64,000 nucleotides of DNA from Escherichia coli (GCF_044324875.1 NZ_CP172185.1), one strand, 5' to 3'; counted from the first letter of the stretch, positions 15,615 through 19,787 are shown. The notes: generated by a model from the sequence alone, not told the origin. A program made the numbers and translations.

Positions 15615-15630
15615 TTTAACATTAATGCCA

Positions 15631-15656
15631 AAAACCGGGGAAACCCGGTTTTTTTA
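15631..15656 (+). terminator. Rho-independent terminator of the dam-trpS operon
   Basis: aaaaccgggg-aaa-cccggttttttt hairpin plus T-run directly after the trpS stop. Confidence 0.75.
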
Positions 15657-15725
15657 TCCTCTTTTTGTAATAATCCGAAAAAATGTGAAGCGCCTCGCCG
15701 TTTCCACATCTCGCAGTTGCCACTT

Positions 15726-15745
15726 ATCTTCATTTTTATGAAGAT
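15726..15745. promoter_or_regulatory. Perfect inverted repeat (atcttcat-tttt-atgaagat) 30 bp upstream of yhfZ; candidate operator
   Basis: Exact 8-bp inverted repeat with 4-bp spacer in an AT-rich promoter region; binding protein unknown. Confidence 0.3.
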
Positions 15746-15774
15746 ATAAATATTCATTTTATTGAAAATTTACT

Positions 15775-16680
15775 ATGCGTCGAACGTTTATCAAAAAAGA
15801 AGGCGTCGTCATCACGACACTGGCCCGTTATTTGTTGGGTGAAAAGTGCGGTAATCGACTGAAAACCATAGATGAGCTGGCAACTGAATGCCGTTCATCC
15901 GTTGGCCTGACGCAGGCCGCGTTGAAAACGCTGGAATCAAGCGGAGCGATACGGATTGAACGCCGTGGGCGCAATGGCAGTTATCTGGTCGAGATGGATA
16001 ACAAAGCATTGCTGACTCATGTGGATATCAACAACGTGGTATGTGCGATGCCCTTGCCCTATACCCGTTTGTACGAAGGCCTGGCGAGCGGATTGAAAGC
16101 CCAGTTCGATGGCATTCCTTTTTACTATGCGCATATGCGCGGCGCGGATATTCGCGTGGAGTGTTTACTTAACGGCGTGTATGACATGGCGGTTGTTTCC
16201 CGACTGGCGGCGGAAAGTTATCTCACGCAAAAAGGCTTATGCCTCGCGCTGGAGTTGGGGCCGCACACCTACGTTGGCGAGCACCAGTTGATTTGCCGTA
16301 AAGGCGAGTCCGCAAACGTGAAGCGCGTGGGGCTGGATAACCGTTCGGCGGATCAGAAAATCATGACCGATGTCTTTTTTGGCGATAGTGATGTGGAACG
16401 TGTCGATCTCTCTTATCACGAGAGTTTACAACGCATTGTTAAAGGCGATGTTGATGCGGTGATCTGGAACGTGGTGGCGGAAAACGAACTGACCATGCTG
16501 GGATTAGAAGCGACGCCGCTCACAGACGATCCGCGATTTTTACAGGCCACCGAAGCCGTGATCCTGACGCGAGTCGATGATTACCCAATGCAACAATTGC
16601 TGCGTGCAGTTGTTGATAAACAGGCCCTGCTTGCCCATCAACAACGAGTGGTCAGTGGGGAACAGGAACCCAGTTATTAA
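15775..16680 (+). CDS. yhfZ: YhfZ, uncharacterised protein (putative regulator) heading the yhf cluster
   Basis: 301-aa ORF; conserved position after trpS. Confidence 0.8.
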   Translation: MRRTFIKKEGVVITTLARYLLGEKCGNRLKTIDELATECRSSVGLTQAALKTLESSGAIRIERRGRNGSYLVEMDNKALLTHVDINNVVCAMPLPYTRLYEGLASGLKAQFDGIPFYYAHMRGADIRVECLLNGVYDMAVVSRLAAESYLTQKGLCLALELGPHTYVGEHQLICRKGESANVKRVGLDNRSADQKIMTDVFFGDSDVERVDLSYHESLQRIVKGDVDAVIWNVVAENELTMLGLEATPLTDDPRFLQATEAVILTRVDDYPMQQLLRAVVDKQALLAHQQRVVSGEQEPSY

Positions 16681-16807: not shown

Positions 16808-16906
16808 TGCGTATTCCGCTCTATTCGATCACGGATTGGCATCGAAGTCCGATCAGCGATTCGCATCCATTCGATCAACCGGGAACTTAACTTTTTCTAC
16901 CGCTTT

Positions 16907-17662
16907 TTAACGCGTTTTTTCGCTGCTTTCCACTACCGGGGGATTTTTCCTCAGTGACTCTCCCTGAAGGACCACTCGGTGTGAGTTATGTACCAGTCTG
17001 TCCAGGATGGCATCTGCTGTTGTTGGGTTCTCCATCAGACCATGCCATTTATCTACCGGGAACTGGCTTACCACTATCGTGCTGCTTTGTCCGTAACGAT
17101 CCTCTATGAGCTCCAGAAGGTCATTACACTGGGCGTTACTTAACTGTTCCAGCCCCAGATCGTCCAGGATTAGAACCTGTATTTTTTGCAACTGTTTCAG
17201 ATATTTCAGCCAGCTGCCATCAACACGTCCCTGAGCCAGTTGTTCCAGTAATCGCCCGGTTCTACAGTACCGGACGCTGTGTTTCTGTCGACATGCCTGT
17301 TCGCCCAGCGCATTGGCTATCCAGCTCTTGCCACATCCTGTCGGACCGGTTATCAGCAGGTTTTTCCTGTGGGTTATGTAGTGGCCGTTCAGCAGTTCTC
17401 TCATCTGTTCAGCCCGCAGACCTCTTGAGGCCGGATAGCGCAGCCCTTCCGGTGTTGCCTGGTATTTCAGGCCGGCATTTTTTCTCAACCGTGCCACACG
17501 GCTGTTTTCCCTGCTCAGAAGCTCGTCATCAACCAGCAGCGTCAGCCTTTCCTCGAACGACAGTTCGTCGTAGGTCTGAGGCGTTTCCCGCTGCCGTATC
17601 AGGCTCCCGGCCATCGCCGGGAGTTTCAGTTGGGTCAGTTTGTTTAACAGGTTATCACTCAT
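16907..17662 (-). CDS. istB: IstB helper ATPase (AAA+, DnaC-like) of the IS21-family element
   Basis: Track ORF is extended; likely start ATG at 17662 (MSDNLLNKL...); Walker A GPTGCGKSW and Walker B LILDDLG. Confidence 0.85.
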   Translation of the reverse strand: MSDNLLNKLTQLKLPAMAGSLIRQRETPQTYDELSFEERLTLLVDDELLSRENSRVARLRKNAGLKYQATPEGLRYPASRGLRAEQMRELLNGHYITHRKNLLITGPTGCGKSWIANALGEQACRQKHSVRYCRTGRLLEQLAQGRVDGSWLKYLKQLQKIQVLILDDLGLEQLSNAQCNDLLELIEDRYGQSSTIVVSQFPVDKWHGLMENPTTADAILDRLVHNSHRVVLQGESLRKNPPVVESSEKTR

Positions 17663-17678
17663 ACTGTTGTTCCTTCTG

Positions 17679-19214
17679 TCAGTGGTAGTAGCCCGGACCA
17701 CGCAGGTTTTCATGCTCTGAAGCATATGCCGGATGTTGTTCGCCCTGGCGGGATAATGGAAGCTCCAGGTTCTCCCGATGGTGACGCAGCAGATTGTCGA
17801 TAAAGCGTCTGTCAGGGGCGTTATAGTGCAGGGCAACGTAACAGGCCTTTTCCAGCCGTTCCGGGCCGTATTTTTTCTGAAGTGCCAGCAGCCCCAGAAC
17901 TGCACGATAAGCCAGTTCCGGATGGGGTTTTGCCTTCAGCATGGATTCAACCACCCGGCCTGTGGACGGGCCCGTACGTTTTCCCTGCTCGATCAGGCGT
18001 TCCGGTGTCCATGTCCCGTGCTGCCGGTGGCGCTCTGGCATGTGAAGCGGATTGGTTGTGTGTTTATATTCATGTGTGCTGCGCGGATGTTGCGCCACAC
18101 ACTGCCCCTTGTGCCAGAGCTGTACCACCGACTGCCCCGCCTTCAGTGACAGACGCTGACCGACCAGTTCGTGTGGAACGGAGTACCAGTGACGGGCATA
18201 TTCAACGTGGTAGTCAGGGCCAACCTTCACAGCTTTGTATTCCGTGTATTCATAAGGTGCCAGAGGCAGCGGAGAGAGTGCTGGCGCATCCAGTATGCGG
18301 AAGCGTTCTGCACGGGTTTGATTGCCGTACCCCTTCATTGGCCGGTTATTCATGTCTGTCAGTAACTCCCTAAGGCGCGCATTCAGCGCCCTGAGCGTGT
18401 GGAAGGTTTCATTACGGATGCGGGCAAGAAGCCATCGTTCAACGATGAGGACGCCGTTTTCTGCTTTTGGTTTATCTTTAGGTTTGCGTGGTCGGGCCGG
18501 GATGATAACCGTGCCATAGTGCTCAGCCAGTGCCTGATAACTGTCGTTGATGACAGGCTCATATCGATCGGCCTTTTTCACTGCGCTTCTGAGGTTATCG
18601 GGGATGAGCAGCTTCGGTACGCCGCCCAGGAAGGTCAGGCAACGGCTGTGGGCATTTAACCATGACATCATGTCCTGACCTTCGCACGCTTCAACGTAGG
18701 TATAGTTGGACGCCCCCATTACGGCCACGAAGATTGCCACGCGGCGTATCTCACCGGTGTCCGGATTAATAACAGGAACCGTAGGACCACAGAAGTCGAT
18801 AAAAAGCTTTTCGCCGGCACGATGCTCCTGGCGCATGGAGAGACGTCGCGTTTTTTTCCACTCCCGGTAGCAACGGCAGAAGTGCGAGTATCCCATCGCT
18901 TTGTTACCCGCCTGTGCCTTGTATTCCATCCACAACAGTTGCCGCGTCACACCTGGTTTTCTCATTTCCGTATCGAAGTACAACATGTCAGGCATTACAA
19001 GCTCTGATGCAAAGGTGTCTTTGGGCGGAAAAATGAGTTTCTCCAGCGTGTCATGGGATATATCAGCAGGTAATGGCCATGACAGAGAAGAGGCTTTGAA
19101 GCGGGCAAGAACCTCAAAAACGGTTGAGGCGCTGATGTGTAACGTCAGTCCGATACAACGGTTAGTCAGCTTCTTGTCGAACTTGAGCTGAAGGATCTTA
19201 AAACAGGTTTCCAT
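17679..19214 (-). CDS. istA: IstA transposase (DDE integrase core with N-terminal HTH) of the IS21-family element
   Basis: Track ORF 17679-19325; likely start ATG at 19214 (METCFKILQL...); stop is 16 nt upstream of istB. Confidence 0.85.
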   Translation of the reverse strand: METCFKILQLKFDKKLTNRCIGLTLHISASTVFEVLARFKASSLSWPLPADISHDTLEKLIFPPKDTFASELVMPDMLYFDTEMRKPGVTRQLLWMEYKAQAGNKAMGYSHFCRCYREWKKTRRLSMRQEHRAGEKLFIDFCGPTVPVINPDTGEIRRVAIFVAVMGASNYTYVEACEGQDMMSWLNAHSRCLTFLGGVPKLLIPDNLRSAVKKADRYEPVINDSYQALAEHYGTVIIPARPRKPKDKPKAENGVLIVERWLLARIRNETFHTLRALNARLRELLTDMNNRPMKGYGNQTRAERFRILDAPALSPLPLAPYEYTEYKAVKVGPDYHVEYARHWYSVPHELVGQRLSLKAGQSVVQLWHKGQCVAQHPRSTHEYKHTTNPLHMPERHRQHGTWTPERLIEQGKRTGPSTGRVVESMLKAKPHPELAYRAVLGLLALQKKYGPERLEKACYVALHYNAPDRRFIDNLLRHHRENLELPLSRQGEQHPAYASEHENLRGPGYYH

Positions 19215-19318
19215 AGTGCTCCTGGATTTTCTCTTTCTGGACATTGACGTCTCCACTGGTTTAAACACGGCAATGGAGACTGTGGTGAAAAGAGTTAATT
19301 CCCGGAGTGACTGGCAGG

Positions 19319-19440
19319 ATGCCAATCAATGATCGGAAGCATGCCAAATCGTGATCGATTGTGATGCCAAACTGTGATCGGAGATGGATGCCAAATCATG
19401 ATCGATTCGAATGCCAAACTGCGATCGATTCAGATGCCAT
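19319..19440. repeat. Six tandem direct repeats (period 22-24 bp, core ATGCCAAA..GATCG) at the istA-proximal IS end
   Basis: Copies start at 19319, 19341, 19364, 19388, 19411 and 19434; inverted copies of the motif occur at the other end (16825-16880). Typical of the multi-repeat termini of IS21-family elements. Confidence 0.7.
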
Positions 19441-19446
19441 TTTGCA

Positions 19447-19704: not shown

Positions 19705-19787
19705 AGCTCACTACAAATCCACGTCGCATATCTTAAATATTCAAAAAAATGAATATTTGATTCAAGGAACAGAAACGAGGCAACAAG

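Follow-up and report, generated by a model that had tools for sequence, protein, structure and literature searches.

The perfect palindrome located just upstream of yhfZ in this Escherichia coli strain is probably the first of three operators of a YhfZ system, in which a YhfZ dimer would bind the palindrome and repress its own, CRP-dependent promoter, and in which a third site would bring the yhfX operon under the same control. This reading rests on sequence comparison: related sites in the window (the whole stretch of 64 kb of DNA analysed), their conservation in orthologous loci and the co-variation of their core with the recognition helix of YhfZ. The php/yhf cluster (php and yhfS to yhfZ) is conserved, and a literature search found no paper assigning it a substrate or a regulation. 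Now that operators are defined and a repressor is proposed, its function can be put to the test, and PyhfZ and PyhfX reporters combined with inducer screening could provide a pointer to the substrate of the pathway.

The window carries dam-rpe-gph-trpS followed by the yhf cluster, all on the + strand. The features discussed here are the following.

15630..15656, + strand: trpS intrinsic terminator, AAAAACCGGG-gaaa-CCCGGTTTTTTT, an inverted repeat (15630/15631) read from the sequence
15684..15699, + strand: CRP-like box TGTGA-agcgcc-TCGCC (TGTGAagcgccTCGCC), 8/10 consensus positions, centre 15691.5, putative CRP binding
15717..15722, + strand: -35-like hexamer TTGCCA, its TTG conserved at a fixed distance from site 1 (14-genus alignment)
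15725..15746, no strand: putative operator site 1, TATCTTCAT-tttt-ATGAAGATA, exact 9-4-9, conserved arms, 32.4 bits
15750..15769, no strand: putative operator site 2, ATATTCA-ttttat-TGAAAAT (ATATTCAttttatTGAAAAT), a 3-mismatch match, 29.0 bits
15775..16680, + strand: yhfZ, predicted regulator: winged helix-turn-helix (HTH_41) at the N-terminus, YhfZ_C domain at the C-terminus (Pfam, NCBIfam)
19735..19758, no strand: putative operator site 3, perfect AAATATTCA-aaaaaa-TGAATATTT, in the yhfY-yhfX gap, 29.2 bits
19788..25830, + strand: yhfX-yhfW-php-yhfU-yhfT-yhfS, placed under site 3 (domain matches, synteny in 80 loci)

The palindrome and its copies in the window

Read directly in the 64-kb window, atcttcat-tttt-atgaagat is an exact inverted repeat at 15726-15745, whose arms gain one more pair (T15725/A15746) to give a perfect 9-4-9 repeat (15725-15746). 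The yhfZ ATG is at 15775 and the gap between palindrome and ATG measures 29 nt, which bears out the original prediction of an exact palindrome about 30 bp before this gene. The conserved unit of site 1, ATCTTCA-N6-TGAAGAT (15726-15745), is centred at 15735.5, about 39 nt 5' of the ATG; a distance of 10 bp, about one helical turn, separates the centres of its TTCA and TGAA cores.

Taken alone, this palindrome is only modestly improbable. Indeed, 14 distinct perfect inverted repeats with an arm of 9 nt or more and a loop of 8 nt or less occur in the window, where dinucleotide shuffles give 2.1 +/- 1.4; for one such repeat to arise within the AT-rich segment 15660-15774, the chance is about 0.01. 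The case is therefore built on related sites and conservation. A perfect repeat with 9-nt arms in about 1% of shuffles, in an intergenic region of 33% G+C, is what could be said for a chance palindrome in an AT-rich spacer or a by-product of the trpS terminator, an origin that we find hardly credible. This terminator, a distinct G+C-rich hairpin, is located 70 nt further upstream; it bounds the yhfZ control region on that side and lies outside the operator.

A search for the palindrome with up to three mismatches yielded four matches in the window, where 0.17 were expected, three of the four being at the yhfZ and yhfX gene starts. Site 2 is an imperfect dyad located 24 bp from site 1 (centre to centre), its own centre being about 15 nt 5' of the yhfZ ATG, and the unit of site 3 (19737-19756) is centred 41.5 nt 5' of the yhfX ATG. 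The fourth match, at 23984 within yhfT, scores less than 10 bits on the weight matrix described below and is taken as chance. The original prediction, right about its single palindrome, omits the tandem site 2, site 3 upstream of yhfX, the 7-6-7 unit and the conserved CRP-like box.

Several look-alike elements were considered and rejected for this palindrome. An intrinsic terminator does not fit a stem with one G-C pair that is followed by no T-run and is absent from the terminator scan. There are four mismatches to a CRP site (TGTGA-N6-TCACA); relative to ARG boxes (TGAAT-N4-ATTCA, usually in tandem), the half-sites are in reverse order and the best match has 3-4 mismatches; and none of the KdgR, Cra, Fur, IHF and LacI-family motifs fits. 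The best matches to the canonical GntR cores (TGGT-N3-ACCA and GT-N-TA-N-AC) have 4/8 and 2/6 mismatches and fall outside the dyad. REP/BIME elements occur as many dispersed G+C-rich copies at the 3' ends of genes, and the window contains no other copies of the palindrome of this kind.

A conserved unit with variable spacers

In K-12/BL21-type alleles, site 1 is TATCTTCA-aattcc-TGAAGATA, in which the inner pair of the palindrome is lost, and site 2 is ATATTCA-atttac-TGAAAAT. As the 7-nt arms are kept and the six central bases changed, the 8-4-8 structure is allele-specific and the unit is 7-6-7, that is ATnTTCA, 6 A/T-rich bp and TGAAnAT (7-nt arm, 6-bp spacer, 7-nt arm). The 8-4-8 palindrome initially described is therefore exact for the present allele but does not hold as the general unit. 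The perfect symmetry seen in the window is a lineage feature, the conserved thing being the two half-sites. The difference and imperfection of the K-12 allele are relevant to the design of probes from the present sequence.

Within Escherichia, the comparison of 13 alleles (one strain with a 6-bp deletion being left out) revealed variation at 3/28 arm positions, including 1/16 in the TTCA/TGAA cores, at 6/12 spacer positions and at 16/44 positions of the rest (Fisher's exact test, p=0.012 for arms versus spacers and p=0.027 for arms versus rest). The control region as a whole (15700-15777) is unusually polymorphic within E. coli: the exact 78-bp allele of the window is present in 32 of the 5,083 E. 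coli genomes carrying the region, most alleles are 80-95% identical, and 343/5,426 genomes gave no match. In E. coli UPEC_U013 (locus L089), a 6-bp deletion between sites 1 and 2 (junction TGAAGA/CATTCA) reduces their spacing from 24 to 18 bp.

Conservation across species

A YhfZ alignment scan, with one genome per species, recovered 80 orthologous loci from Escherichia, Citrobacter, Klebsiella, Trabulsiella, Cedecea, Buttiauxella, Photorhabdus, Xenorhabdus, Serratia, Providencia, Vibrio and Photobacterium. The order yhfZ-yhfY-yhfX-(yhfW)-php-yhfU-(yhfT)-yhfS is syntenic in 80/80 loci; the upstream neighbour is trpS in Enterobacteriaceae only, and the sites persist where this neighbour differs. 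A lack of conservation upstream of orthologous yhfZ genes had been named as a result that would refute the operator, and the outcome is the reverse: TTCA-N6-TGAA is found at most 110 nt before yhfZ in 77/80 loci, from Escherichia to Vibrio. Furthermore, in an unseeded MAFFT alignment of 14 genera, the invariant columns include 15725-27, 15729-32, 15739-42 and 15744-45, and the spacer (15733-38) is not among them.

A symmetrised 24-nt weight matrix was derived from 57 unique sites located before yhfZ, the present window being left out. On the 64-kb window, just three positions reach 10 bits or more, and these are sites 1, 2 and 3 (32.4, 29.0 and 29.2 bits, respectively). Over 981 kb of loci, 133 sites of at least 14 bits are located before yhfZ, 75 before yhfX and 14 elsewhere; the chance matches expected per 4.9 Mb are 0.6 at 14 bits and 0.002 at 25 bits. 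Although the matrix was trained on yhfZ-upstream sites alone, it detects a yhfX-upstream site in 75/75 non-Vibrionaceae loci. The 14 outside matches, considered as possible extra regulon members in the flanks, were rejected as intragenic, located between convergent genes or, in the rearranged locus L040, located before yhfY; no further target genes were found among those that were checked.

The site centres lie at fixed distances from the yhfZ ATG, about 39 nt for the site 1 type and about 15 nt for the site 2 type, a copy at the latter position being found in 45 of the orthologous loci. Both yhfZ-proximal sites are present from Escherichia to Buttiauxella, the distal one alone in Xenorhabdus, Serratia and Providencia, and the proximal one alone in Photorhabdus. 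In four Vibrio loci, where the yhfY-php spacing does not exceed 11 nt, the sole intergenic site is the one before yhfZ, and in Pluralibacter gergoviae, where the gene order is yhfY-yhfZ-yhfX, the site is found before yhfY. These lineage differences in the number and position of predicted sites fit a control at the operon level.

Conservation from Escherichia to Vibrio and beyond, recurrence before yhfX and the arm-versus-spacer pattern already refute the chance origin. The dyads are very probably conserved protein-binding operators.

Some additional copies and particularities were noticed in these loci. At yhfX heads (L003-L077), the AAAAAA spacer of the yhfX-proximal site (19744-19749 here) is invariant in most genera, from Escherichia to Xenorhabdus, and differs in Serratia, Providencia and Pluralibacter; by contrast, the spacers of the yhfZ sites are variable. 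This invariance is not demanded by a simple operator model and could reflect the shape of the A-tract or an overlapping promoter element. In five Vibrio/Photobacterium loci (L078-L082), a motif-like sequence, AAATCCTCAATTTATTGAAAATTT, is found about 180 nt inside php (for example L078:7457-7480; 17-22 bits) and could be an internal operator or plain conservation of the coding sequence. In Photorhabdus (L037:1439, L039:1433 and L043:1000), an additional near-copy of yhfX-type sites is found some 5 kb before the cluster, between convergent ORFs in L043. As a short yhfS-like remnant is found upstream in L037, this near-copy may be a relic of a duplicated cluster.

YhfZ as the probable reader of the dyads

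E. coli YhfZ matches HTH_41 (7e-19) and YhfZ_C (1e-84) in Pfam and the YhfZ_full equivalog in NCBIfam. Its DNA-binding domain matches HTH_41 and not PF00392, and some distant homologues also display GntR matches, faint to unmarked. The AlphaFold model, of moderate confidence (mean pLDDT 69.5, 74-83 over the HTH), comprises helices 3-22, 32-38 and 43-55 and a beta-hairpin, the wing, at 59-74, which would make residue 43 the first residue of the predicted recognition helix (43-55). The only solved YhfZ structure in the PDB, 2OZZ, covers residues 74-301, without the DNA-binding domain and without DNA. From E. coli to Vibrio, S42-V43-G44-x-x-Q47-x-A49-L50 and the wing G65-R66-N67-G68 are invariant, the identity of the whole domain going down to 40%; the invariance of these predicted recognition-helix and wing residues matches the unchanged half-site.

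Beyond these loci, a profile search gave 728 representatives of the family, the N-termini of which are mainly of a V43 type (S-V-G) or of an R43 type (x-R-G-T), and the genomic context was obtained for eleven distant members. At distant V43-type loci, TTCA-N6-TGAA is present at the head of the gene in 5/5 distinct loci. At distant R43-type loci, TACA-N6-TGTA is found instead at the head of the gene or operon, in four cases exactly and in one (L103) with one mismatch. The opposite core is absent from the heads of both types. Two loci (L094, of the R43 type, and L095) are uninformative, yhfZ being in the middle of an operon whose head is off the contig. The R43-type locus L099 carries a perfect TTTCAATATACA-aaaaaa-TGTATATTGAAA, two others (L101 and L104) have second TACA-type sites before the next gene, and the V43-type locus L096 displays the full architecture, with a site following a TTGACA-17-TAAACT promoter and a further two preceding the downstream PRD-php-DUF2620-yhfT genes. 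TACA-N6-TGTA does not occur at the heads of 80 V43-type loci, its background rate being 0.012 per kb.

As the core changes from TTCA to TACA together with the replacement of Val43 by Arg, these data point to YhfZ as the binding protein, and this co-variation is, in our view, the strongest argument that the regulator of the cluster itself reads the dyad. YhfZ is thus quite probably the protein that recognizes these sites. The proposal that the palindrome is the operator of a dimeric regulator, with autoregulation by YhfZ as one possibility, is thereby supported by the conservation in orthologs and by the co-variation of core and recognition helix. In a neighbour-joining tree of the C-terminal domain, the sampled V43 loci fall in at least three groups and so do the R43 loci, which suggests more than one Val/Arg switch; since the tree has no bootstrap support, the co-variation could reflect few independent events. 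The predicted Val43/Arg43 rule lends itself to a clean specificity-swap experiment.

Recognition of the dyads by another regulator, either global or specific and unlinked to the cluster, appears quite improbable. In its favour, site 1 of the window resembles an FNR site at 8/10 positions (TTCAT-N4-ATGAA versus TTGAT-N4-ATCAA). Nevertheless, both mismatches affect the third position of the half-site, the G/C pair of the FNR consensus, and the resemblance is allele-specific, the FNR-like inner T/A pair being missing in K-12/BL21 alleles and in other genera, so that the palindrome was rejected as an FNR site. The cores of CRP, ArgR, KdgR, Cra, Fur and canonical GntR sites fit poorly. Against any such regulator, the motif follows the cluster into lineages where its neighbours differ and across phyla, and its core co-varies with the recognition helix of YhfZ. 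Indeed, the sites travel with the yhf cluster in Enterobacterales, in Vibrionaceae and in far more distant low-G+C genomes.

A wider generalisation is proposed as a tentative and rather doubtful one. The YhfZ family would be a widespread undescribed class of regulators, all controlling php/yhf-type clusters through 7-6-7 dyads, in which the residue opening the recognition helix would determine the second base of the core, Val giving TTCA and Arg giving TACA, and in which Asn, Ile or Phe may specify other cores. The PRD-like YhfY, always encoded beside YhfZ, may link these systems to sugar-phosphotransferase signalling.

Proposed promoter geometry and direction of control

The CRP-like box is located 44 bp upstream of the centre of site 1 in 57 loci. 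Its centre lies 83 nt upstream of the yhfZ ATG in the window, 82-83 nt in most genera including Vibrio, 81 nt in Serratia, and 79 and 89 nt in single loci. In the 14-genus alignment, the three bases of the TTG of TTGCCA (T63, T64 and G65) are invariant or almost so. With a 17-bp spacer after TTGCCA, the -10 element would be GAAGAT (15740-15745), within the right arm of site 1, and transcription would start near 15752-15753. On this numbering, the CRP-like box would occupy a class I position at about -61.5, and sites 1 and 2 would fall at about -17 and +7, respectively. A scan for consensus promoters found none on the + strand in the yhfZ or yhfX control regions; for yhfZ this is compatible with the weak, activator-dependent promoter that we infer, and for yhfX no promoter could be proposed with any confidence. 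The corresponding yhfZ leader, rich in A/U, would measure only about 22 nt; no Shine-Dalgarno sequence can be recognised for yhfZ (15745-15777), and site 2 ends 5 nt before the ATG.

In the model that we favour, the two recognition helices of a YhfZ dimer would each enter a major groove, the two grooves being successive ones on the same face of the DNA. The yhfZ promoter would be a weak, CRP-dependent class I promoter, at which bound YhfZ would block RNA polymerase and so repress its own operon, site 3 imposing the same repression on yhfXW-php-yhfUTS. A small molecule bound by the C-terminal domain would release the repressor. Repression is the effect that we attribute to YhfZ with modest preference.

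YhfZ might also read the dyads as an activator or dual regulator, for example by aiding RNA polymerase at promoters with poor -10 and -35 elements, which we judge unlikely. No consensus sigma-70 promoter was detected in the two control regions, a feature typical of promoters that need an activator; site 1 is flanked by the conserved TTG and, downstream, by a TATAAA-like sequence, with an over-long spacing; and no conserved promoter elements are evident 5' of site 3. However, the geometry deduced above puts the sites over the -10 element and the start, and the CRP-like box already occupies the position of an activator. Moreover, in loci L096 and L098, the site is directly downstream of near-consensus promoters needing no activator (TTGACA-17-TAAACT and TTGACA-17-TATAAC, respectively), a placement that corresponds to a repressor-type position.

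The same two loci bear on another proposal, namely that the repeats work as RNA, forming hairpins in the 5' leaders to which a PRD-type antiterminator, for example, could bind, the PRD-like YhfY being encoded alongside. The L096 and L098 sites would indeed be transcribed, the arms fold with energies of -9.0 and -8.2 kcal/mol (z about -5 to -6, by construction), the switch from TTCA to TACA keeps the pairing, and the overall pairing is above that of column shuffles, with a formal pair count of 82%. As the core pairs hardly vary, they give no information on compensation. The arms do vary: fully complementary 7-nt arms are present in just 15/83 unique sites, the mid-stem pair is non-standard in 55/83, the position adjoining the core (C15728/G15743 here) is Watson-Crick in 22/83, A.G being the commonest, and before yhfX the right arm often contains TGAT without a compensating change. 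Such uncompensated changes argue against an RNA hairpin. Furthermore, site 1 lies upstream of the proposed start, there is no relevant Rfam match at E<=1, and the correlation with an HTH residue points to the recognition of duplex DNA. The PRD match of YhfY is sub-threshold (20.2 bits versus a Pfam cutoff of 23), and this protein of 120 residues has no other domain match and therefore no evident RNA-binding domain. The terminator scan gave no terminator after either site, its negatives being subject to the caveat that it missed the clear trpS hairpin, probably because an extension of the stem by A/T pairs consumed the T-run. Globally, an RNA signal seems very improbable, and a DNA operator, probably read by YhfZ, is retained.

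Relationship with known systems

As proposed for YhfZ, local winged-HTH repressors of the GntR family such as FadR, PdhR, NanR and FrlR, the last of which is encoded next to the yhf cluster, are dimeric and encoded at the head of the operon that they control. The operators are also alike, with a dyad near the promoter (a predicted one for yhfZ) whose half-sites are conserved and whose centre is not, and the NCBI name of YhfZ is GntR-family regulator. However, the yhf operator lacks the GT...AC core of FadR/HutC-type sites, the effector domain is YhfZ_C instead of FCD or UTRA, and the DNA-binding domain is HTH_41 instead of PF00392.

The arrangement also recalls lac-type promoters, with a CRP-like box about 61.5 bp before the proposed start, two operators around that start (about -17 and +7) and another one within the cluster. 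Nevertheless, YhfZ does not belong to the LacI family, and the yhf positions are predicted ones. The third operator is 4 kb away here (1.4 kb in strains devoid of the IS described below) and fronts a second operon, which makes it an unlikely looping partner.

With LysR-type regulators, YhfZ shares the combination of an N-terminal winged HTH and a C-terminal effector domain, and the fold of YhfZ_C resembles that of solute-binding proteins. The Pfam profile of this domain, PF14503, is mentioned in a survey of solute-binding-protein profiles (PMC9602780). Unlike LysR-type regulators, YhfZ has no LysR_substrate domain and its gene is co-directional with its targets instead of divergent; the yhf dyad is even in length (TTCA-N6-TGAA) and does not correspond to T-N11-A.

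The evidence is of the kind used for RegPrecise-style regulons established by phylogenetic footprinting, that is a palindrome before the regulator and the neighbouring operon, and the co-variation of regulator and operator. In the literature, RegPrecise and RegulonDB being outside the search, no data on a YhfZ operator, start site or function were found. YhfZ is called a 'putative transcription factor' in PMC12147183, and an operon list (PMC4448311) gives a php-yhfSTUWX unit apart from yhfZY. Mentions of YhfZ or the cluster came from a note on a BIME, lists of operons and a knockout screen. The palindrome would be an ordinary kind of element, a repressor-type operator, and sites for YhfZ have, as far as we found, not been described previously.

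Surroundings of the cluster

The genes placed under site 3 encode a YhfX-like PLP enzyme, a metalloenzyme/phosphopentomutase-like protein, a member of the phosphotriesterase family, a DUF2620 protein, YhfT and the aminotransferase-like YhfS. In this strain, an IS21-family element (istA/istB, ISSso4-like, minus strand, 16808-19445) interrupts yhfY, with a target duplication of 7 bp, and parts the yhfZ promoter from the yhfX operon. Downstream of this element, the identity to strain Ecol_316 is 95.9%, down from 99.8%, a drop suggestive of a mosaic or of a recombination boundary. In Ecol_316 (L001 17224-18527), yhfT is annotated as frameshifted and the yhfZ control region is the same as in the window; this frameshift and the IS in yhfY hint that the cluster is decaying in some lineages.

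In BL21 (L002 6060-6190) and K-12 C600 (L083), about 127 bp of additional REP/BIME-like sequence lie between the stop codon of trpS and its terminator. A 2010 paper (PMC2965389) includes in its list a BIME located upstream of yhfZ. This stretch of the K-12/BL21-type alleles is absent from the window and separate from the operator.
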